Origin: Betaproteobacteria bacterium
GTDB lineage: Bacteria; Pseudomonadota; Gammaproteobacteria; Burkholderiales; SG8-41
Direction of reading: 5' to 3'
Assembly (NCBI GenBank): GCA_046339595.1
Contig: JBKDUF010000046.1
Location: 1,717 to 65,716, forward strand
DNA length: 64,000 bases
The position numbers and the translations under genes were made by a program. Every line of letters begins with the position of its first letter. Within the stretch, counting starts at the first letter, position 1. Under the pieces are notes generated by a model. The model did no database searches. It had not been told where the DNA came from and saw only the letters and a list, made by a program, of their open reading frames with translations. This document shows positions 5,487 through 56,642 of this stretch, one piece after another.

Positions 5487-6998
5487 TCAACCTTCGGTCT
5501 CGAGCTGCACCTTGCGCCCGCGGAACCTGAGCTTTTGCAGTATCAGCGGCAGGCACAGGAACAGTAGGGTCAGCAGCAGGAATGCCGCCACGATCGGCCG
5601 CTCGAGCAGCACCAGCAGGTTGCCCTGGGACATGATCATCGACTGGCGCAGCGCCTCTTCCATGCGCGTGCCCAGCACCAGCCCGAGGATCACCGGCGCG
5701 ACTGGATAAGCGTGCTTTCTCATGAAATAGCCCAGCACGCCGAAGCCGCAGAGGAAAATCAGGTCCAGGGTCTGCTGGTTGACGTTGTAGACGCCAACCA
5801 CGCAGATCACCATGATCACCGGCAGCATCAGGCGCAGCGGCACGTAGAGCAGGCGCACGAAAAGGCCGACCATCGGCAGGTTGAGGATCAGCAGCATCAC
5901 GTTGCCGACGTAGAGCGCGGCGATCAGTCCCCACACCACTTCCGGATGCTGGCTGAACATCATCGGCCCCGGATGCACATTGAGCGCCGTCAGCGCCAGC
6001 AGCAGGATCGCCGTGGTGCCCGACCCGGGAATGCCGAGGGTGAGCATCGGCACCATCGCGCCGGCACTGGCAGCGTTGTTGGCCGACTCCGGCGCGGCGA
6101 CGCCGCGGATCTCGCCCTTGCCGAAGCGCTCGGGGTTTTTGCTGATCTGCGATTCAACCGAATAGGACAGGAAAGACGCGATGCCGGCGCCGGCGCCGGG
6201 CATCACGCCGACGACGAAACCGATCGCGGTGCCGCGGCCGATCGCGCCCAAGCTTTCGCGGATTTCCTGGAAGGAGATGTACAGCCGGTGTTTGATCACC
6301 GACTTGGCCTCGCCGCTGCGCAGTTCATTGGTGTTGAGCAGCACCTCGGACACCGCGAAGAGGCCGATGGTGACGATCAGGAACTCGATGCCGTCGAGCA
6401 TTTCGGCAATGCCGAAGGTGAAGCGCGCGACGCCGGTGACATCGGTGCCCATGGTAGAGATCATCAGGCCGAGGGTCATCGCCATCAACCCCTTCACCAG
6501 CGAGCCGCCGGACAGTGCAGCGACCGACGACAGGCCGAACACCATCAGCACGAAATACTCCGGCGGACCGAAGTTCAGCGCCCATTCGGCGATACGCGGC
6601 GCGAAGAGCATCAGCGCTACCACACCAAGTGTGCCAGCAATAAAAGAACCGATGGCAGAGATACACAGCGCCGACCCCGCCCTGCCCTGCAGCGCCATCT
6701 GGTGACCGTCAAGGCAGGTCACCACGGAGGACGATTCGCCCGGCACGTTGAGCAGGATCGAGGTGGTCGAACCGCCGTACATCGCGCCGCAGTAAAGCGC
6801 GGCGAGCATGATGATGGCGCCCACCGGGTTCATGTTGAGCACGATCGGCAGCAGCATCGCCAGCGCGCCGGCGGGTCCGATGCCCGGCAATACGCCGATC
6901 ACCGTGCCGAGGACAGCACCGATGAGGGCAAACAGCAGGTTCTGGGGTTGCAGCGCGGTCTCGAATCCACCCATCAGCAGTGGCAGCACGTCGCCCAT
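5487..6998 (-). CDS. tctA: tripartite tricarboxylate transporter large permease TctA
   Basis: 503 aa polytopic membrane protein. GVLPGIGPAGALAMLLP and YGGSTTSILLNVPGE motifs. Lies directly downstream of tctB and tctC. Confidence 0.92.
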   Translation of the reverse strand: MGDVLPLLMGGFETALQPQNLLFALIGAVLGTVIGVLPGIGPAGALAMLLPIVLNMNPVGAIIMLAALYCGAMYGGSTTSILLNVPGESSSVVTCLDGHQMALQGRAGSALCISAIGSFIAGTLGVVALMLFAPRIAEWALNFGPPEYFVLMVFGLSSVAALSGGSLVKGLMAMTLGLMISTMGTDVTGVARFTFGIAEMLDGIEFLIVTIGLFAVSEVLLNTNELRSGEAKSVIKHRLYISFQEIRESLGAIGRGTAIGFVVGVMPGAGAGIASFLSYSVESQISKNPERFGKGEIRGVAAPESANNAASAGAMVPMLTLGIPGSGTTAILLLALTALNVHPGPMMFSQHPEVVWGLIAALYVGNVMLLILNLPMVGLFVRLLYVPLRLMLPVIMVICVVGVYNVNQQTLDLIFLCGFGVLGYFMRKHAYPVAPVILGLVLGTRMEEALRQSMIMSQGNLLVLLERPIVAAFLLLTLLFLCLPLILQKLRFRGRKVQLETEG

Positions 6999-7001
6999 GA
7001 T

Positions 7002-7478
7002 TCAGCCCTGGAAAAAGCGGGCCAGCGGCCCGAGAGGCAGCCGGATGTCCAGCAGATAATGAAACAGCCCGAACACCACCCCGGTCACGGCCGCACTGTA
7101 GCCGAGGATGCCCGTCCAGCTGGGATGCCCGAAGTAGCGGAAGGTGATCACCAGAAACAACGGTGTCGCAATCAGGAACCCGAGGTCCTCGAACACCAGG
7201 GCATAAGCCAGCAGCATGGCCGCCGGCACCAGCGCCGTGATGTCCGATCCTCCGTCATCCGCCTTGTCCTTCTTGCCGTCGGAGCCGCCCTGCAGCAGCA
7301 GCAGGATGCTCAGCAGGATGCCCAGCGCCGTCAGCAGCCGGTTGAAAAATGCCGGGCCGATCACATCCCCCTGCAGCGCGGCGGTGAGCTGGGTGCCGCC
7401 CCAGCCGTAGACCAGGACAACCCCGAGGAAAAGTAACGCACCGATGCGGCCGGCGCCGAGCGAAAATTTCATGCGCAT
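7002..7478 (-). CDS. tctB: tripartite tricarboxylate transporter small permease TctB
   Basis: Small 4-TM protein between tctC and tctA. I prefer ATG 7478 (TGGGAG SD 5 nt upstream) over the TTG at 7490 listed in the ORF track. Confidence 0.8.
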   Translation of the reverse strand: MRMKFSLGAGRIGALLFLGVVLVYGWGGTQLTAALQGDVIGPAFFNRLLTALGILLSILLLLQGGSDGKKDKADDGGSDITALVPAAMLLAYALVFEDLGFLIATPLFLVITFRYFGHPSWTGILGYSAAVTGVVFGLFHYLLDIRLPLGPLARFFQG

Positions 7479-7511
7479 GCGAACTCCCAATCTTCCATGT
7501 CCCGTCGCGTA

Positions 7512-8495
7512 TCAATTGCCGGGTTTGAGGAGGCTCATCTCCTTGTTCAGGCGCATATAGGTCTTTTCCTCTTCTTCGAAGAAGGCAACCAGCGCCGGCC
7601 CCGTGGTCCAGCTGTCGACCAGCGCGTTGCGGGAAACGTACTCCTTCCACTGCTTGGTCTCGCGCACCTTGGCCAGTGCCTGCACCCAATACTGGGCGGC
7701 CTCGGCGCTGATGCCTTGGGGCGCCATCACACCGCGGAACTGCTTCGGGAAACGCGCGTTTATGCCAACATCCTGAAACCGCGGAACATCCGGCAACAGT
7801 TCAAGCCGCTCAGTCGCAGCCAGCGCACGCAACTTGCCGGCCTTGACGTGCTGCGCCATCTCCGCCGGATTTTCCATCATGAAATGCACATGTTTGCCGA
7901 GCAACTGCGGAATCGCCTCTCCGGCGCCGCGAAACGGAGTGTAGGAAAACTGCACACCGCCAAAATCCTCGAAAATCTTGCCCGCCATCGATGCACTGCT
8001 GCCATAGGAACCACCGCCCTGCAGGATCTGCTTGGGTTTTTGCCTTGCCGCATCCAGCAGGTCTCGCGGCGTACGCCATGAGCTCTCGGCATTGACCACC
8101 AGCAGCATTGGGTCTACCGCCATCAGCGCGATCGGCGTGAAACTGCGCCAGCCCGTATCGGAATTGATGAGCAGCGGCAGGTTGAGGCTCTGCGGCGTGT
8201 AGGCTGCCAGCATGTGCGGGTTGCCCTTGTTCTGGAAGGTCACATAGCGGCGAGCCTTCTCACCCTGGGAACCGGTCACCGACTCCACCGCAACCTGGCG
8301 GGGCACGATCTTGTTCTTGTTCATGATGTCGGCAATCTCTCGCAACATCAGCTCGTTACCTGTGCCAGGCGCGGAATGGGTGACCATGACCACGCGCTCG
8401 GTAGGCGCCCATTGCGCGAGTGCGCTGCCAGTAACGGACAACGCCAGCGCGCCCGCGGTGATTGCAGCAGTACGGCAGAAAGTCGTGCCATTCAT
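7512..8495 (-). CDS. tctC: tripartite tricarboxylate transporter substrate-binding protein TctC
   Basis: ORF trimmed to ATG 8495, preceded by GGAGGAGACCATC. Signal peptide MNGTTFCRTAAITAGALALSVTGSALA. FSYTPFRGAGEA and KAGKLRALA motifs. First gene of the tctCBA unit. Confidence 0.88.
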   Translation of the reverse strand: MNGTTFCRTAAITAGALALSVTGSALAQWAPTERVVMVTHSAPGTGNELMLREIADIMNKNKIVPRQVAVESVTGSQGEKARRYVTFQNKGNPHMLAAYTPQSLNLPLLINSDTGWRSFTPIALMAVDPMLLVVNAESSWRTPRDLLDAARQKPKQILQGGGSYGSSASMAGKIFEDFGGVQFSYTPFRGAGEAIPQLLGKHVHFMMENPAEMAQHVKAGKLRALAATERLELLPDVPRFQDVGINARFPKQFRGVMAPQGISAEAAQYWVQALAKVRETKQWKEYVSRNALVDSWTTGPALVAFFEEEEKTYMRLNKEMSLLKPGN

Positions 8496-8562: not shown

Positions 8563-9543
8563 CTATGTCCTGCTGCCGAAGCCGGGCAGGTAGACCGGCC
8601 CGTCCTCGATGCCATCCACCGGCGGACCGCTCATGCCGTGGCTGGTGTCCTTGGCGACAAAGGTAAGCACGTCGCCGGCCGCCGATGCAATCGCGCTGTG
8701 GCGCACGCCCGGCGGCAGGTGCGTCACCGAGTTCGGCGGCGCCTCCACCGCATGGCCGTCGATTTCGTAGAGCATGGTGCCGCTCAGCACGAAACTGAAC
8801 TGTTCGTTGGGATGGGTGTGCAGTTTGGTGCCGCTGCCAACCCCCTTGTGGATATGTCCGACCTGCACTTTTTCACCCCGCAGCGCGGCGCCGAATGATG
8901 ACGATTTCCCGGAGATGAAGTTGCGCGGGATCACCTGCGCGCTGGTCGGCCACTCCGGCACGGCATCGAGATGCTCGATGTCGTAGACGTACTGGATTTT
9001 CCGGCCCGACCCGTTTTTTGTCTGTGGCTCCGGCAGGCCATCAGGGCCCGGCTTCCATTCGTTGTCGCCCTTCCCGAAACCGGGCAGGTGCCGCGGGCCG
9101 TTGTAGACACCGTCGATCGGCGGACCAACGATGCCGTGGCGGGTATCCTTGACCGCGTAGAAAATCACATCCTCTTCGGCGCTAGACACGTGGCTGTGCG
9201 GCATGCCGGCGGGGATATGCACGACATGCCCCTTCGGCACGCGAAACACCTGGCCGTCCATGTCCGCGATCAGGGTGCCCTGAATCACGTAATTGAACTG
9301 TTCGTTGGGATGGGTATGGATCTTGGAGCCGGTACCGCGCGGCTTGTGCACCAGCGCAACCTGCAAACGCTCCCCCTTGACCACAGCCCCAACGGAAGTT
9401 GACTTTCCGGTGGCCAGCGTCTCGCCAGATAGCAGCCGCCGCGGGGATACTTTTGCGCTGCTAGGCCCCTCCGGCACGCGGTCCAGTTCCTCGAAGCGGT
9501 AAATATGGCGAACCGGTGGTGCTTCCCGTGTTATCGCTGACAT
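8563..9543 (-). CDS. bicupin protein A (two metal-site cupin_2-like domains), function unknown
   Basis: ORF 8563..9921 trimmed to ATG 9543 (SD GAGGAGGG). Both halves carry G(T/S)G(S/T)K(I/L)HTHPNEQF ... P.G..HS (HxH..E...H cupin metal site), each followed by GPP(I/V)DG..(N/D)GP..LPGFG. Confidence 0.85.
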   Translation of the reverse strand: MSAITREAPPVRHIYRFEELDRVPEGPSSAKVSPRRLLSGETLATGKSTSVGAVVKGERLQVALVHKPRGTGSKIHTHPNEQFNYVIQGTLIADMDGQVFRVPKGHVVHIPAGMPHSHVSSAEEDVIFYAVKDTRHGIVGPPIDGVYNGPRHLPGFGKGDNEWKPGPDGLPEPQTKNGSGRKIQYVYDIEHLDAVPEWPTSAQVIPRNFISGKSSSFGAALRGEKVQVGHIHKGVGSGTKLHTHPNEQFSFVLSGTMLYEIDGHAVEAPPNSVTHLPPGVRHSAIASAAGDVLTFVAKDTSHGMSGPPVDGIEDGPVYLPGFGSRT

Positions 9544-9640
9544 ACTGCCCTCCTCAGTGGGTGCGGCCCGGCCGGATCGGGCGTACACCCGGATCCGGCC
9601 CCGCCGCGGCCTTCGTTCGGTTTGCGGTAACGCCCTGACC

Positions 9641-10627
9641 TTACTTCTTTGGCCCGAAGCCCGGCAGGAAACGCGGGCCGTCCTCGATGCCGTCGATCGG
9701 CGGGCCCGAGAGACCGTGGCGGGTGTCCTTGGCCACAAAAAACAGCACATCGCCATCGGCCGAGGCCACGCAGGAATGCACCACGCCAGCAGGCATGTGG
9801 ATCGCATGGTTGCGCGGCACCATAACACCTTCCTGGCCGTCGATGTCGGCAACCAGCGCGCCTTCCAGCACCAGATTGAACTGCTCGTTGGGGTGTGTGT
9901 GCAGCTTTGAGCCCGACCCACGACCCTTGCGGATCAGACCGACCTGGACCTTCTCGCCGACCAGTGCAGCGCCGAAAGACGAAGACTTGCCCGAGACCTT
10001 GCCCGTGGGCAGCACCTTGGCGCTGCAGGGACCTTCCGGCACCTTGTCGAGCTCATCCCATTTGTAGACGTAGCGCACCTTTTCCTCGGATACCCGCGGG
10101 CTCTGCGCAATGAGTTCTCCGTCGGGGCTGACCGGCCACTCGTTTTCGGACTTGCCGCCGAACCCCTTCAGCGCGCGCGGGCCGTTGAGCTTGCCGTCGA
10201 CCGGCGGTCCGACGATGCCGTGACGCGTGTCCTTGGCAGCGATGAAGTGCACATCCTCCTCGGGACTGGCAACATGCGAGTGCGGCATCCCGGCCGGAAT
10301 GTGGATGACATGGCCGGCCGGCACGCGCAGCACCTGCCCGTCGATGTCGGCGATCAGCGTGCCCTTGAGCACGTAATTGAACTGCTCGTTGGGATGGGTG
10401 TGCAGCTTGGAACCGGTGCCGCGCGGCTTGAACACCCAGGCCACATGCACGTGGGTGCCTGACAGCACCGGCCCGCGAGTGGTGGACTTGCCGGTATCCA
10501 GCGTTTCACCGGACAGCAGCCGGGTCGGCGCCACGCTGCAGCTGTTGGTGCCTTCCGGCACCGCATCCAGCGCATCCAGGTTGTAGACGAAGCGTTTCCG
10601 GACTTTCTCCTGGGTTGCCGTGCTCAT
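9641..10627 (-). CDS. bicupin protein B, paralogue of A
   Basis: 328 aa, collinear with bicupin A over its whole length. Examples: KLHTHPNEQFNYVLKGTLIADIDGQVLRVPAGHVIHIPAGMPHSHV versus KIHTHPNEQFNYVIQGTLIADMDGQVFRVPKGHVVHIPAGMPHSHV. Confidence 0.85.
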   Translation of the reverse strand: MSTATQEKVRKRFVYNLDALDAVPEGTNSCSVAPTRLLSGETLDTGKSTTRGPVLSGTHVHVAWVFKPRGTGSKLHTHPNEQFNYVLKGTLIADIDGQVLRVPAGHVIHIPAGMPHSHVASPEEDVHFIAAKDTRHGIVGPPVDGKLNGPRALKGFGGKSENEWPVSPDGELIAQSPRVSEEKVRYVYKWDELDKVPEGPCSAKVLPTGKVSGKSSSFGAALVGEKVQVGLIRKGRGSGSKLHTHPNEQFNLVLEGALVADIDGQEGVMVPRNHAIHMPAGVVHSCVASADGDVLFFVAKDTRHGLSGPPIDGIEDGPRFLPGFGPKK

Positions 10628-52187: not shown

Positions 52188-52997
52188 TCAGCGGCCGCTG
52201 CTCTCCGGCCAGGCGCTGGCGTCAATGGCCTCGCGATAGGCATGCCAGGTGGCATGGCCGAGCAGCGGTACCGTCAGCGCCAGGCCGAGCAGCGCGGTGG
52301 CGAAGCCGATGCCGGTCAGGAACACGATCAGCAGCGCCCACAGCGCCATCGCACGCTTGTTGCGCAGCACCGCATTGACGCTGGTGACGATGGCAGTGAC
52401 CGCATCAACCTCGCGGTCACAGATCATCGGCAGCGAGAACGCACTGAACATGAAGGTCAGCAGCGCGAAGATCGAGCCCACCGCCGAGCCAATGGCCAGA
52501 AACACCGCAAGCTGGTTGAGATCAGTACCGCCATCCGCCGGGAAGAACACATGCACCATTGAGCCTGCTCGCGCCCATACCAGAAACAGGACCAGCAGCG
52601 CCAGCGCGAACACCATCGCGTTGCCGAGGGCACGGCGCTGCTCTGCGAAGCAGCGCGACAGGCGGGCCCGCTCTCCGGCCTCAAGCTGGCGGCTGATGGA
52701 ATACAGGCCCAGCGCCAGCAACGGCGCGACAAACACGAAACCCGACATCAGCACCAGCACCGCCCAGTAGCTGCCCAGGCGCAGGCCGATGCCAGTCACC
52801 CCCCAGGACAGCACCACGATCGCCAGGCCGCAGGCCAGGCTCTGCCGCGGCGCGCGTTTGAGGTCGGACCAGCCCTGGCGCAGCCAGCCCAGCGCGGCGA
52901 GTGGCGGCAAAGCCCGACAGGGCGCGACAAACGGCAGTTCGCCCGCAGGCTGTGCGTCCTGACCAACGGGATCAGGGAACAAGTCTGGCTTTTCCAT
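52188..52997 (-). CDS. DUF2189-like integral membrane protein
   Basis: 269 aa. N-terminal ...LAALGWLRQGWSDLKRAPRQSLACGL followed by about five hydrophobic helices. Family name recalled from memory. Confidence 0.7.
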   Translation of the reverse strand: MEKPDLFPDPVGQDAQPAGELPFVAPCRALPPLAALGWLRQGWSDLKRAPRQSLACGLAIVVLSWGVTGIGLRLGSYWAVLVLMSGFVFVAPLLALGLYSISRQLEAGERARLSRCFAEQRRALGNAMVFALALLVLFLVWARAGSMVHVFFPADGGTDLNQLAVFLAIGSAVGSIFALLTFMFSAFSLPMICDREVDAVTAIVTSVNAVLRNKRAMALWALLIVFLTGIGFATALLGLALTVPLLGHATWHAYREAIDASAWPESSGR

Positions 52998-53124
52998 GGC
53001 GCGTCAGACCGCAACCGCACACATATGCAGCGGTGCGATGCCCTGAAAATGATTCCGGACAAACCGCACGCCGGAGGAGAGGGAAGACACTGACCAGCGC
53101 GGATGCTGCGACTGCAAATGGCAT
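52972..53124 (-). CDS. possible 50-codon small ORF (hydrophobic N-terminus, three Cys), not in ORF track
   Basis: AGGGAGGAAGCC-ATG at 53124. It encodes MPFAVAASALVSVFPLLRRAVCPESFSGHRTAAYVCGCGLTRHGKARLVP*. It overlaps the DUF2189 start, which has no SD, by 26 nt. No homology evidence. Confidence 0.25.
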   Translation of the reverse strand: MPFAVAASALVSVFPLLRRAVCPESFSGHRTAAYVCGCGLTRHGKARLVP

Positions 53125-53194
53125 GGCTTCCTCCCTGAGAAGCACTGCTCACAGCGGGCCGACGGACCAAAGCCCGCCGGCCGGGTGTAAAAAT

Positions 53195-53728
53195 CTACTG
53201 ATGGCCTTTCAACAACAGGTCCACCACCTGGGGCGCGATCTCCGCCGCGCGCTGGTCCATCTGTTCCGGCGTCAGGTTGGCGATCGGGTGCGGCATGACC
53301 AGGAACTTCAGGTCCGGCACGCCCCAGGTCTTCGCCATCGCCTTGCCCGTCACCGTGAACACGTGGGTGACGATGGACGCCGAAGGAATCCCCTGCTGCT
53401 CAAATACGATGCTGTCGAGCACACTGCCCGAGCTGCATGACCCTCAATCGCCGACGCCTGCAACGATGATGTCGCAGTTCTGCTTGTACTCGGCAATCAT
53501 CTCCGGGCCGGGGGCCGAACCGGCGCTTTTCTTTTTGCGGATCACATGCGACTTCGCACCGTGTTCCTTCTCGAGGATCGCTGCGATGCGCATCAGCAGC
53601 TGGTCGGAGTTGTGCTTGGTGTTGTCGACCAGACCGATGCGCAGGCCCTGGAGCGACTTCGGCCGCGGCACGAAGTTGATCTTGCGACTGCTGGTTTCGG
53701 TGGTGGGATCGTAGATCTGGATGCTCAT
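53195..53728 (-). CDS. UGSC-motif selenoprotein (in-frame UGA at 53444..53446 read as Sec), function unknown
   Basis: ORFs 53444..53728 and 53195..53422 share one frame and are separated only by TGA plus 7 sense codons. Product: ...IIVAGVGD-U-GSCSSGSVLDSIVFEQQ... SD TAGGAGA precedes ATG 53728. The downstream part has no ATG or SD of its own. Confidence 0.75.
53409..53438 (-). promoter_or_regulatory. candidate bacterial SECIS hairpin for the UGSC gene
   Basis: mRNA +6..+35 after the UGA. Lower stem AUGC/GCAU, 3x2 internal loop, upper stem UCGGGC/GCUCGA (one G-U pair), apical loop AGUGU. Folded by hand only. Confidence 0.45.
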
Positions 53729-53782
53729 GGCGATCTCCTAAATAAAAATCAATTAAAACAATGGGTTGAATACACCCACATT

Positions 53783-54820
53783 TCAAGGACACCGGATTTC
53801 CCGGGTAACACTCTGCGAACCGTTCTTGCCGCCCCAGCCGGGGATGTAACAGGACTGCACGCCGGCCTTGCCGCCGGCGGCGATGACCAGCAAATCCTGC
53901 GGCGTGTGCACCAGCGGCTGCATCGTGGCTTCGGATTCGGCGGTGACCGGGCCGGGGCGTATGTTGGCGCGCTGCATCTCGGCCTGCGACAACTGGCTGT
54001 GCTCGAACACATAACGCTGCACATCCTCGCGCGACCAGCCCGCCTTCTGCATGATCAGCTGGTGCTCGCCGGCGAACACCATCGCGTACTGCGGCTGGCG
54101 GTTGGTGCCGGCCGAGAAGCGCATCTGCGCACAGGCCGTGGTCAGCACGCCTTCGGGCGTCGCACTGAGGCCGTTCGAATACTGATGCACGCCAAGGGCT
54201 GCGAAAATCGTCACCGCGTTATGCTCCGGCTTGAAGCCGCGCGTGGTGTGGAAAGGCGGCCACGGGCTGTCCACCTCGTTCTCGGCGATGCAGAAGGTGT
54301 ATTTGCCGGGGTGGCCGAGGCTGGAGCGGTCGAGCACCCCGGGCGTGGTGCCGATCACGTTCTGCATCACGAGGCGGATGGCGCGGCCGATGGTGGCATT
54401 GGCGCGCCAGCCCTGGCCGAACACGTTATCGCCGCTGTTGATGTTGAGCTGTTTCGCGATCGGGCCGTTGACCAGCATGAACACCGCCGAGCCGCCGGTG
54501 CTGGTTGCCGGGCCGTGGTAGCCGTAGAGCGGATCGGCCAGCGCCTCGACGGTGGCGGTGATCACGGGCATGAACTCCGGCTTGCAGCCAGCCATCACCG
54601 CGTTGATCGCGACCTTCTCGGCGGTCACCGAGACCTGGCGGTTTTCGATGAACGAAAGTTGTTTACCCGGTTCGAGGCCGCCGGCTTCAAGCATCGCGGC
54701 GATCCGCGACGCGGTCGGCGGAATCACCGGCAGGCCGTCGGTCCAGCCATTCGCATAGCAGAGCTCGATGGCGCTGCCTTCGTCGTCGGCCGTCAGCCGG
54801 CGGGACTTCAGTTCGATCAT
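53783..54820 (-). CDS. uncharacterised 345-aa protein immediately upstream of the UGSC selenoprotein gene
   Basis: ORF trimmed to ATG 54820 (SD GGAGGAG). MIELKSRRLTADDEGSAIELCYANGWTDGLPVIPPT... I recognise no named domain. Soluble-looking. Only 54 bp separate it from the UGSC gene. Confidence 0.75.
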   Translation of the reverse strand: MIELKSRRLTADDEGSAIELCYANGWTDGLPVIPPTASRIAAMLEAGGLEPGKQLSFIENRQVSVTAEKVAINAVMAGCKPEFMPVITATVEALADPLYGYHGPATSTGGSAVFMLVNGPIAKQLNINSGDNVFGQGWRANATIGRAIRLVMQNVIGTTPGVLDRSSLGHPGKYTFCIAENEVDSPWPPFHTTRGFKPEHNAVTIFAALGVHQYSNGLSATPEGVLTTACAQMRFSAGTNRQPQYAMVFAGEHQLIMQKAGWSREDVQRYVFEHSQLSQAEMQRANIRPGPVTAESEATMQPLVHTPQDLLVIAAGGKAGVQSCYIPGWGGKNGSQSVTREIRCP

Positions 54821-54963
54821 GCCGCTCCTCCGCTGCGCTTGCTCCGGACGGGCAAGTCTGCAGATCAGTCTACCGCAGTTCACCGGGAACGCCTGGCGCC
54901 GCATCCACATCATGGGCCGGGGACTCTGCTAAGGTGGCAACCTCGTCACCATCCATGCCTGCC

Positions 54964-55293
54964 ATGACCGAACTCGTCCTGCTCGCCACCGTTGTTGCCC
55001 TCGCCTGGCTGTGGTGGGACAGCATGCAGGCGCGCGAAGCCGCGGTCACGGCGGCGCGCGCCGCCTGCGAAGCGGAGGGTCTGCAGTTCCTTGACGACAC
55101 GGTCGGCATCGCCTCGCTGCGCCCGGCGCGCAACGCCGGGGGCCGTCTGCTTCTGCAGCGTGCCTACGATTTCGAGTTCAGCGACACCGGCGACAACCGC
55201 ATCCGCGGCAGCGTGGTCACGTTAGGCCGGCGGGTGATCCTGCTGCGCGTACTGCCGCCGCAGCCGGTGGCAACCGTCACCCGCATCCGCTGA
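54964..55293 (+). CDS. DUF3301-family small membrane-anchored protein
   Basis: MTELVLLATVVALAWLWWDSMQAREAAVTAARAACEAEGLQFLDDTV...YDFEFSDTGDNR matches my recollection of the DUF3301 pattern. The ORF could also start at 54934. Confidence 0.7.
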   Translation: MTELVLLATVVALAWLWWDSMQAREAAVTAARAACEAEGLQFLDDTVGIASLRPARNAGGRLLLQRAYDFEFSDTGDNRIRGSVVTLGRRVILLRVLPPQPVATVTRIR

Positions 55294-56180: not shown

Positions 56181-56642
56181 TCAGAGCTTGCGGATTTCCG
56201 CCAGCAGCTCATCACTGGCAGGGATCGTGCCCTGCGGGTAGACCTTGGCGTAGCGGATGACGCCCCCCGCATCGATGACGTAGGCGGCGCGCTTGTCGAT
56301 ACCGCGTTCCTCGTTGAAGATGCCAAAGGCCCTGCCCACCGCGCCATGCGGCCAGAAATCCGACAGCAGCGGGAACGGCACCCCGCCGAGGACATCGGCC
56401 CAGCCCTTCAGGCTCGGCGTCGGGTCTATGCTCAACTGCAGGATCTCGGTGTTGAGCGCCTTGAATTTGTCGTAGTTCTCACGGAACCCACGGACTTGAT
56501 TGGTTCACCCGCCGGTAAATGCAAAAGGCATGAACGCGACCACGACCGGCCGGCCGCGGAACGCGGACAGCGTGACCTTCTGGTCGGAATTGTGCGCGGC
56601 CAGCGAAAAATCGGGCGCGGCGCTGCCAGCTTGAATTTCCAT
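56181..56642 (-). CDS. AhpE-like 1-Cys-type peroxiredoxin with selenocysteine at the peroxidatic position (UGA 56505..56507)
   Basis: ATG 56642 (SD GGGAGAA) gives MEIQAGSAAPDFSL...VVVAFMPFAFTGG-U-TNQVRGFRENYDKFKALNTEILQLSIDPTPSLKGW...FPLLSDFWPHGAVGRAFGIFNE... The UGA falls exactly in the PxxxTxxC signature. The two track ORFs (the tail of 56505..57320, and 56181..56435) are in one frame. Confidence 0.8.
56469..56495 (-). promoter_or_regulatory. candidate bacterial SECIS hairpin for the peroxiredoxin gene
   Basis: mRNA +10..+36 after the UGA: GU(C)CGU(G)GGUUC-CGUGA-GAACUACGAC. Ten pairs with two single-nucleotide bulges and a 5-nt loop. Folded by hand only. Confidence 0.5.

Follow-up and report, generated by a model that had tools for sequence, protein, structure and literature searches.

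The UGSC selenoprotein and an unnamed 345-residue protein form a widespread two-protein unit with links to the thioredoxin system

The stretch of DNA analysed here (the window, 64,000 nucleotides in all, positions 1,717 to 65,716 of contig JBKDUF010000046.1 in assembly GCA_046339595.1, from an uncultured Betaproteobacteria bacterium of the SG8-41 lineage in the Burkholderiales) carries four open reading frames (ORFs) that lie head to tail on the minus strand, running from position 54820 down to 52188. They are the gene of a protein of 345 amino acids (aa) whose family has no name, the gene of a selenoprotein of the UGSC family, a 50-codon reading frame, and the gene of a DUF2189 membrane protein. 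UGSC has been catalogued as a selenoprotein family of unknown function since 2007/2008, and it is still so described in reviews of 2022 and 2026. In this work, we observe that the 345-aa protein and UGSC constitute an ancient, widespread and often fused two-protein unit, and that the two downstream reading frames lie outside of it. An earlier note on this DNA, made from the letters alone, had tentatively grouped all four into a single redox module.

The 345-residue protein and UGSC as a conserved pair

A genome scan restricted to one genome per species returned at least 600 matches to the 345-aa family. Eighty of these loci were kept and, together with the locus L007, give a set of 81 that spans the Burkholderiales, Methylomirabilota/Rokubacteria, Dehalococcoidia and other Chloroflexota, Poribacteria, Acidobacteriota, Binatia, SAR324 and Actinomycetes, among others. 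A UGSC gene is present in 68 of the 81, and in 67 of the 78 informative loci (the remaining three being too short to tell) it lies on the same strand within 1 kb of the partner gene, mostly 0-250 nt downstream and sometimes upstream. Metagenome loci seeded on UGSC itself number 80, of which 69 are informative, and the partner stands directly upstream on the same strand in all but one of these (68/69). In several cultured bacteria that carry cysteine (Cys) forms of UGSC, namely Paraburkholderia sediminicola, Janthinobacterium, Agromyces bauzanensis and Pseudonocardia, the two genes overlap by 4 nt at their stop and start codons, and the pair is adjacent on plasmids of Arthrobacter, Variovorax and the haloarchaeon Natrinema.

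The two proteins are also frequently joined on one polypeptide. Among the top 150 representatives of the 345-aa family, 54 relatives are at least 400 aa in length, and 34 of the 54 are fusions with a UGSC domain. Both domain orders occur: some fusions consist of the partner and then the N-terminal half of UGSC, ending exactly at the selenocysteine (Sec) position, and in others UGSC is followed by the partner. Paralogous pairs, two or three of them next to one another, occur in several genomes (L014, L017, L049, L067, L072 and L087), and a number of metagenome-assembled genomes have two partner-UGSC pairs at one locus; on L049, a contig of 2.1 kb, three copies of the partner family stand in a row, and proteins of about 710 aa (713-aa forms among them) contain two partner domains in tandem (P0121, P0122, P0127, P0129, P0136 and P0139). 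Because of the synteny across phyla, the translational coupling and the gene fusions, we regard the two proteins as functionally linked.

Beyond the pair itself, the surroundings vary widely. The 135 adjoining ORFs contain 139 Pfam families, the commonest of them in only five, and neither the clustering of flanking ORFs nor the Pfam census yielded a third universal gene near the pair. Genes for SDR, luciferase-like, NHL, CoA-transferase, thiamine pyrophosphate (TPP)-enzyme and TctC proteins are sporadic only. In cultured strains, the pair is found inside catabolic clusters that include acyl-CoA ligase, acyl-CoA dehydrogenase, aldehyde and alcohol dehydrogenases and amidohydrolase-2. TPP enzymes of the acetolactate-synthase type occur near the pair in 8 loci; on L007, a long-read metagenome contig, the TPP-enzyme gene upstream of the pair (6214-7894) is called as separate N- and C-domain fragments with spurious opposite-strand calls between them, which is probably a frameshift artefact of the assembly. 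A link to sulfonate metabolism, considered in view of an Arthrobacter phosphosulfolactate synthase, NMT1-type transporters and the TPP enzymes, was set aside, the TPP enzymes being generic acetolactate-synthase-like proteins that fall below every curated cut-off.

The partner family is large, with at least 7996 matches in a database clustered at 90% identity and 5067 representatives after clustering at 50% (1196 of them at E <= 1e-30), and in RefSeq all of its plasmid-borne relatives are labelled 'hypothetical protein'. The 345-aa protein matches nothing in Pfam or NCBIfam, and against the sequences and profiles of the PDB its best hits reach E = 0.49-0.95. An AlphaFold2 model was obtained with a predicted local distance difference test (pLDDT) score of 81 and a predicted template modelling (pTM) score of 0.85, and a Foldseek search of this model against the PDB returned nothing at E <= 0.001, with a best template modelling (TM) score of 0.27. 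Iron-sulfur (Fe-S) hydro-lyases and Toblerone-fold amidohydrolases, which appear among the sub-threshold Foldseek hits at TM 0.27 or less, were rejected as homologues.

An alignment of 55 sequences (34-45% identity) provides a clearer view of what the family conserves. D28, P31, G78, R146 and a few glycines are invariant, and C79 (in NAVMAGC), R139, N141, N154, C177 (in CIAE), E180 and W187 are conserved in at least 90% of the sequences. The cysteine pattern differs by subfamily. Most members have C79 and C177; the rokubacterial and the Paraburkholderia/Janthinobacterium forms have C21 and C79 with valine at 177; a few paralogues (L014, L017) have C177 alone, with A79; and the protein of the window has C21, C79 and C177. 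Every one of these subfamilies adjoins a UGSC gene. All conserved cysteines are likewise kept in ten partner genes for which no UGSC gene was detected nearby (L026, L035, L038, L044, L046, L050, L056, L064, L071 and L082), five of them from Poribacteria. A second cysteine that moves in this manner is typical of thiol enzymes, and the invariant set of Arg, Asp, Glu and Asn residues, to judge from the alignment, suggests a small-molecule pocket.

Selenocysteine decoding, predicted fold and redox associations of UGSC

Searched with U written as C, the UGSC product of the window matches PF24696 over its full length (residues 4-173; 199.9 bits against a cut-off of 25; E = 4.5e-59) and the NCBIfam equivalog NF041046 with 153.2 bits (cut-off 125). 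It is a typical member of the family of Zhang and Gladyshev (2007/2008) in its motif, its length and its TGA codon with a selenocysteine insertion sequence (SECIS); whereas the literature treats the family as a stand-alone selenoprotein, here it is one half of a two-protein unit and is predicted to be flavodoxin-like.

The in-frame TGA of the UGSC gene is a real selenocysteine codon. It aligns with the Cys of 30 Cys homologues (GVGDCGSCSS), and at the corresponding position of the partner-linked UGSC genes the codon is TGA in 74 of 79 and TGC in the other five. A codon alignment of 70 distinct Sec-form sequences reveals a hairpin 12-14 nt past the UGA (alignment columns 18-24 and 30-36, with a loop A-G-U-N-U) in which 89% of cells are paired, as compared to 18-56% in slid controls. 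Double-change cells number 33 versus 7.3 in shuffles, and the observed covariation was reached by none of 500 shuffles; two stem positions change in a compensatory manner, U-A being replaced by G-U, A-U or C-G at one, and C-G by G-C at the other. The five Cys-form genes encode the same peptide with other codons, and in these the hairpin cannot form. Folding of the window sequence on its own is not significant in this region (z = -0.59), and its minimum-energy fold past the UGA is a longer structure that differs from the short hairpin supported by covariation, so that single-sequence folding would have indicated the wrong SECIS. The hairpin matches no Rfam family, and neither sel genes nor tRNA-Sec were found in the 64-kb window.

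Selenium is strongly favoured at this position, not only in our loci (74:5) but also in the Global Ocean Sampling (GOS) data, for which the 2008 paper gives 255 Sec and 21 Cys forms of UGSC (PMC2398784). A preference of this kind suggests that the selenium does chemistry rather than fulfilling a structural role.

The fold of UGSC was approached through a Cys homologue of 61% identity, modelled with 30 sequences. In this model (pLDDT 92.9), five beta-alpha units build a three-layer sandwich, and the U/CxxC motif falls between strand 3 and the N-terminus of helix 3. Its best PDB matches are generic flavodoxin-like folds (the flavin mononucleotide reductase MsuE, lumazine synthase and receiver domains) with TM scores of 0.4-0.5, and no thioredoxin-fold protein is found among the top 50. 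UGSC is thereby predicted to have a flavodoxin-like fold and not a thioredoxin fold. The 2008 paper describes a 'likely Trx-like fold' (PMC2398784), an assignment that this model and its top 50 matches contradict.

A well-studied group of selenoproteins invites comparison with UGSC, namely the substrate-specific selenoproteins B of the Stickland reductases (PrdB with PrdA for D-proline, and GrdB/F/H with GrdE for glycine, sarcosine and betaine). These are also small UxxC selenoproteins in which the motif follows a hydrophobic beta-strand and precedes a helix, they are likewise obligately paired with a larger second subunit encoded next door, and they have a similarly high ratio of Sec to Cys. 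In some organisms, the grd operons include trxB-trxA, as does the operon of the Arthrobacter relative of the UGSC pair. There is also a weak local profile similarity centred on the motif, which might reflect a remote kinship of the Sec-loop region (strand, UxxC, helix, strand): hhalign aligns UGSC with a set of 15 GOS PrdB-like sequences over 54 columns at E = 8.7e-4, at a probability of only 23%, with both U/CxxC residues and a following E..G-I-P element in register. The 345-aa family, compared with the same set as a control, shows no similarity (E = 0.48). The differences are nonetheless considerable. UGSC gives no match to the Pfam family GRDB (PF07355) even at E up to 10, while one of the GOS PrdB-like sequences, serving as positive control, matches it at E = 1.3e-9; UGSC has about 175 aa, versus about 240-440 aa; the 345-aa partner resembles nothing, PrdB-like sequences included; neither a pyruvoyl-forming subunit nor equivalents of GrdA, GrdC or GrdD are present; and the hosts of UGSC are mostly aerobic or facultative heterotrophs and haloarchaea, not amino-acid-fermenting clostridia. 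Given the result for GRDB, the lack of a pyruvoyl subunit and the mostly aerobic hosts, we treat the Stickland enzymes as an analogy and do not count the pair among them.

Clues to function also come from genes of the thioredoxin system. On the Arthrobacter plasmid the pair is part of a trxB-trxA-partner-UGSC operon in which trxA overlaps the partner gene, and a thioredoxin-reductase-type gene stands beside the pair in Variovorax, Paraburkholderia and Pseudonocardia. Across the 81 genome loci, which amount to 1.13 Mb, a trxB-like gene occurs in 4, against roughly 0.3-1 expected, and in L063 it is directly downstream. Among the 54 long relatives, the partner domain is fused in one case to Pyr_redox_2, in one to AhpC/TSA and in two to the catalytic chain of ferredoxin:thioredoxin reductase (FeThRed_B). 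The trxB/trxA operon partners, taken with these thioredoxin-reductase-like, ferredoxin:thioredoxin-reductase and peroxiredoxin fusions, support a tie of the UGSC pair to thiol/selenol redox chemistry. The presence of FeThRed_B or Pyr_redox_2 on one polypeptide with the 345-aa domain resembles known fusions of ferredoxin:thioredoxin reductase and NADPH-thioredoxin reductase, and indicates a disulfide-relay chain; unlike in those systems, the modules are accessory and rare (3/54), and the proteins of the window lack them.

A third component is found in certain lineages. In Paraburkholderia and Janthinobacterium, a CxxC protein of 86-91 aa follows UGSC with overlapping stop and start codons (L088, 7552-7827; L091, 7552-7812), a small CxxC protein also follows UGSC in a deltaproteobacterial metagenome-assembled genome (MAG), and the positions of such genes include 1578-1790 of L067. 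In Arthrobacter (L093, 7018-7833) and in L086 (about 9071-9856) the same domain is joined to the C-terminus of UGSC, and scores as NifU-like (PF01106, 27.2 bits). The Nfu-like CxxC protein is thus optional in the system, and the window does not encode it; the 50-codon ORF of the window was considered as its counterpart and proved unrelated on comparison.

The locus in the window

The features of the locus are collected in Table 1, and those that the earlier note had described (the 345-aa ORF, the 54-nt spacer, the TGA of UGSC, the GC hairpin, the 50-codon ORF and DUF2189) were all found where it had placed them. Its view that the 345-aa gene and UGSC are functionally linked is borne out by the synteny, coupling and fusions described above, and its suggestion of thiol/selenol chemistry by the trxB/trxA operons and redox-domain fusions of the relatives. 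It had likewise recognised no named domain in the 345-aa protein, which agrees with our searches of Pfam, NCBIfam, PDB sequences and PDB folds; a match to a well-characterised enzyme family outside redox chemistry, which it had named beforehand as an outcome that would speak against its proposal, did not appear among them.

Table 1. Coordinates of the features at the locus, in window positions
Feature	Position	Strand	Remarks
345-aa UGSC partner gene	53783..54820	minus	MIELKS...REIRCP; GGAGGAG Shine-Dalgarno ahead; family without a name
Spacer between the 345-aa gene and UGSC	53729..53782	minus	54 nt, AT-rich; ends in the AGGAGA Shine-Dalgarno of UGSC
UGSC-family selenoprotein gene	53195..53728	minus	177 aa; Sec TGA at 53446..53444, motif GD-U-GSC-SS; PF24696, NF041046
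SECIS-type hairpin	53414..53432	minus	Core stem UCGGGCA/UGCUCGA; loop with invariant G-U; covariation
GC-rich hairpin right after the UGSC stop codon	53148..53191	minus	11-bp GC stem; no U tract
50-codon ORF, judged non-coding	52972..53124	minus	GGGAGGA ahead
DUF2189 membrane protein gene	52188..52997	minus	PF09955; no Shine-Dalgarno
DUF3301 gene	54934-55293	plus	Divergent from the 345-aa gene
Peroxiredoxin selenoprotein gene	56181-56639	minus	AhpC/TSA type; TGA at 56507-56505, motif F-T-G-G-U

The start codon that yields 345 aa was preferred to a longer reading of 376 aa because the near homologues are almost all 340-350 aa in length, and the identical protein is encoded on contigs of several metagenomes and in one MAG. 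A promoter scan of the window found none, and a terminator scan found 3 terminator-like sites versus 2.1 expected by chance, which is the chance level; one of the three is a weak hairpin at 53779..53761, inside the 54-nt spacer. In relatives, this spacer is conserved neither in sequence nor in structure, and in the Burkholderiales it is U-rich and precedes a strong Shine-Dalgarno sequence. No Rfam family reaches threshold anywhere in the window. The 113-nt region between the DUF3301 gene and the 345-aa gene must hold the promoters of both, and a consensus scan detected no sigma-70-like promoter in it.

DUF2189, the fourth gene of the proposed module, is a true member of its family (PF09955, 78.7 bits against a cut-off of 26.2; E = 5.5e-22). 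The earlier note had considered that the partner, UGSC, a Cys-rich micro-protein and DUF2189 might be co-transcribed as one membrane-linked redox unit, a reading for which there are the common strand, the short spacers, the lack of a U-tract terminator after UGSC and the recurrence of DUF2189 downstream of the pair in three close relatives, two of which have shorter spacers. These three (L101, L104 and L114, with 98%, 98% and 90% identity in the 345-aa protein) are the only such cases among the 80 UGSC-seeded loci, DUF2189 is gone wherever the identity of the partner is 78% or lower, and it is missing within 8 kb from all 81 loci of other species in the set seeded on the 345-aa family; in the 77% relative L007, an opposite-strand TctC gene occupies its place. 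The earlier note had proposed to see whether UGSC homologues keep company in other genomes with both the 345-aa family and DUF2189, and only the former half of that association extends past the closest relatives. DUF2189 is therefore a lineage-specific downstream neighbour and not a part of the conserved module, and the membrane link, which rested on it, is left without support.

The 50-codon ORF fares no better as a gene. Its GC content at third codon positions is 47%, compared with 81-87% in every real gene around it, it has no match in Pfam or NCBIfam and no homologue outside the same species, and it is absent from the short spacers between UGSC and DUF2189 in L104 and L114; it is an intergenic reading frame that occurs by chance. 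The stable hairpin that separates UGSC from DUF2189 also speaks against a common unit. Its folding energy is -34.6 kcal/mol (z = -2.4), a value matched by 4 of 200 shuffles, and the shorter spacers of L104 and L114 lack it. It may mark the transcript end of the pair, or act as a stabiliser. Taken together, the synteny largely refutes a four-gene module, which we hold to be highly improbable.

The window encodes a second selenoprotein, an AhpC/TSA-type peroxiredoxin that is read through an in-frame TGA (...AFMPFAFTGG*TNQVRGF...) and that public gene calls render as fragments of 45 and 84 aa. Its distance from the 345-aa gene, which is downstream of it and shares its strand, is 1.4 kb, and an SDR gene and the divergent DUF3301 gene stand between the two. 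An MsrB gene is found about 8 kb away within the window.

A thioredoxin-fed reductase and its alternatives

Given the pairing and the redox associations described above, the reading that we consider probable is that the 345-aa protein and UGSC are two subunits of one cytoplasmic thiol/selenol oxidoreductase that is fed by thioredoxin. UGSC would contribute a small flavodoxin-like domain in which Sec95-x-x-Cys98 occupies the loop that leads from a beta-strand to the N-terminus of a helix, and this residue pair would alternate between the selenol/thiol and the selenenylsulfide state. The 345-aa subunit would supply the substrate pocket, formed by Asp28, Arg139, Arg146, Glu180 and several Asn residues, and one or two cysteines, Cys79 with either Cys177 or Cys21. 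Electrons would pass from NADPH by way of thioredoxin reductase and thioredoxin to the pair, and in some lineages through the fused thioredoxin-reductase-like or ferredoxin:thioredoxin-reductase module, or through the Nfu-like CxxC domain. The net result would be the two-electron reduction of a substrate that is probably small and anionic, in which Sec, by analogy with PrdB and GrdB, would serve as the attacking or reducing atom. The movable second cysteine, the charged invariant residues, the multiplied paralogous pairs and the catabolic clusters speak for a reductase family whose substrates are small and probably anionic. What the analysis establishes is the linkage and fusion of the two genes, the signal for Sec decoding, the association with redox genes, the set of conserved residues and the class of fold of UGSC; that the subunits bind each other, that a selenenylsulfide cycle operates, which way the electrons flow and what kind of substrate is reduced are inferred.

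Such an enzyme would have much in common with the thioredoxin-dependent reductases (methionine sulfoxide reductases, ArsC and 3'-phosphoadenosine-5'-phosphosulfate reductase). The dependence on thioredoxin reductase and thioredoxin, which we infer from operons and fusions, is one such likeness, and another is the conserved nucleophilic Cys with a second Cys whose position shifts between subfamilies of the partner. In contrast to those enzymes, the redoxin UGSC is flavodoxin-like, dedicated, nearly always a Sec form and often fused to its partner, and the fold of the 345-aa protein matches no known reductase.

Several observations weigh against a thioredoxin-fed reductase. Neither protein has a known substrate, cofactor or activity, and no catalytic fold can be recognised in the 345-aa protein. 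The pairing has exceptions, namely ten loci with a gene of the 345-aa family and no UGSC within 8 kb, even at the sensitivity of a hidden Markov model, and one UGSC gene (L122) with no partner within 3 kb. A trxB gene is near the pair only in a minority of loci, and none lies within 10 kb of it in the window, so that here the pair would draw on the general thioredoxin system of the cell. The similarity to PrdB is weak and comes with no GRDB match, and a homologue of the pyruvoyl subunits PrdA/GrdE was not detectable with Pfam and the PrdB-like set, a search that involved no direct comparison of PrdA/GrdE profiles. Last, the very variable gene context fits a general housekeeping role in redox metabolism as well as it does a specific catabolic one.

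That last point also speaks for an antioxidant or repair function, in which the pair would reduce peroxides, oxidised protein or an oxidised cofactor, either as a dedicated peroxiredoxin reductase or in the manner of methionine sulfoxide reductase; a stand-alone housekeeping function is what such a context would be expected to accompany. The fusion of one relative to AhpC/TSA, the AhpF-like CPHC reductase near the pair in L065, and the peroxiredoxin selenoprotein and MsrB gene of the window are all in keeping with this. We nevertheless consider it unlikely, as the side-by-side paralogous pairs and the tandem 713-aa forms suggest a diversification of substrates, the invariant Arg/Asp/Glu/Asn set suggests a pocket for a small molecule, cultured strains keep the pair inside catabolic clusters, and the peroxiredoxin fusion is a single case among 54. 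It is less probable still, and in our estimation quite doubtful, that the cysteines of the partner and the Sec and Cys of UGSC bind a metal or Fe-S cluster between the subunits, giving a lyase-like or ferredoxin:thioredoxin-reductase-like enzyme with a selenium ligand. Four potential ligands are at hand (C79, C177 or C21, U95 and C98), UGSC is in places accompanied by a third gene for an Nfu-like Fe-S carrier domain or fused to such a domain, some relatives are fused to the 4Fe-4S catalytic chain of ferredoxin:thioredoxin reductase, and the weak matches that head the fold search with the partner belong to Fe-S hydro-lyases (class I fumarate hydratase, E = 3.6e-3, TM 0.27). However, those matches are far below significance, the one-cysteine paralogues with A79 and C177 in L014 and L017 still adjoin Sec-form UGSC genes, and partners that are genuine thioredoxin reductases of the CATC type and thioredoxins argue for disulfide or selenenylsulfide chemistry.

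A role in sulfur or selenium trafficking deserves mention as well, UGSC being then a carrier of persulfide or perselenide on its Sec/Cys loop, like the DsrE/TusA-type carriers, with the 345-aa protein as donor or acceptor enzyme. In DsrE-type carriers, the reactive residue is situated at the N-terminus of a helix, as modelled for UGSC within its flavodoxin-like fold, and the association with the Nfu-like domain would suit such a role. Against this, the census of flanking genes shows that cysteine desulfurase, rhodanese, SelD and cofactor-biosynthesis genes do not recur nearby, the links to thioredoxin reductase and thioredoxin suit a reductase better, and so strong a preference for Sec over Cys would be unusual in a carrier; we judge it very unlikely. 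A bolder form of the selenoenzyme proposal is that the UGSC pair represents a new class of selenium-dependent enzyme, one that either combines PrdB-like reductive bond cleavage with an unrelated partner whose fold is novel, and does so in haloarchaea and in aerobic heterotrophs of soil, fresh water and the sea, or contains an inter-subunit metal or Fe-S centre with Sec as a ligand. This we put forward tentatively, as a possibility worth pursuing rather than as our expectation.

The earlier note had called the system previously undescribed, which is only partly so. UGSC as a family has been listed since 2007/2008, and the 2008 paper notes its fusion to an unnamed domain, 'Unknown_1' (PMC2398784), which is plausibly the 345-aa family. 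In full-text searches on UGSC, no paper turned up that reports an obligate partner, links to the thioredoxin system, a flavodoxin-like fold or an optional Nfu-like component.

The locus in the window is an ordinary member of a very widespread, uncharacterised system. This system is probably a new form of thioredoxin-linked selenoprotein reductase, and it stands an appreciable chance of constituting an enzyme class of its own. The analysis defines a large unnamed protein family, of at least 5067 clusters at 50% identity, that is without a Pfam model or a structure, and a two-protein unit with links to thioredoxin turns the function of UGSC into a tractable biochemical problem. Genetics is made feasible by cultured Sec-free hosts of Cys forms, which include Paraburkholderia sediminicola, Arthrobacter sp. 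ERGS1:01, Variovorax sp. SRS16, Agromyces, Pseudonocardia and Natrinema and which avoid the problems of selenoprotein expression. According to the 2008 paper, few prokaryotic selenoprotein families are more abundant than UGSC in environmental data, and in several non-marine GOS samples none is more frequent (PMC2398784). Should the pair be a new enzyme class, a selenoprotein family that ranks with the most abundant ones of aquatic metagenomes would gain a function.

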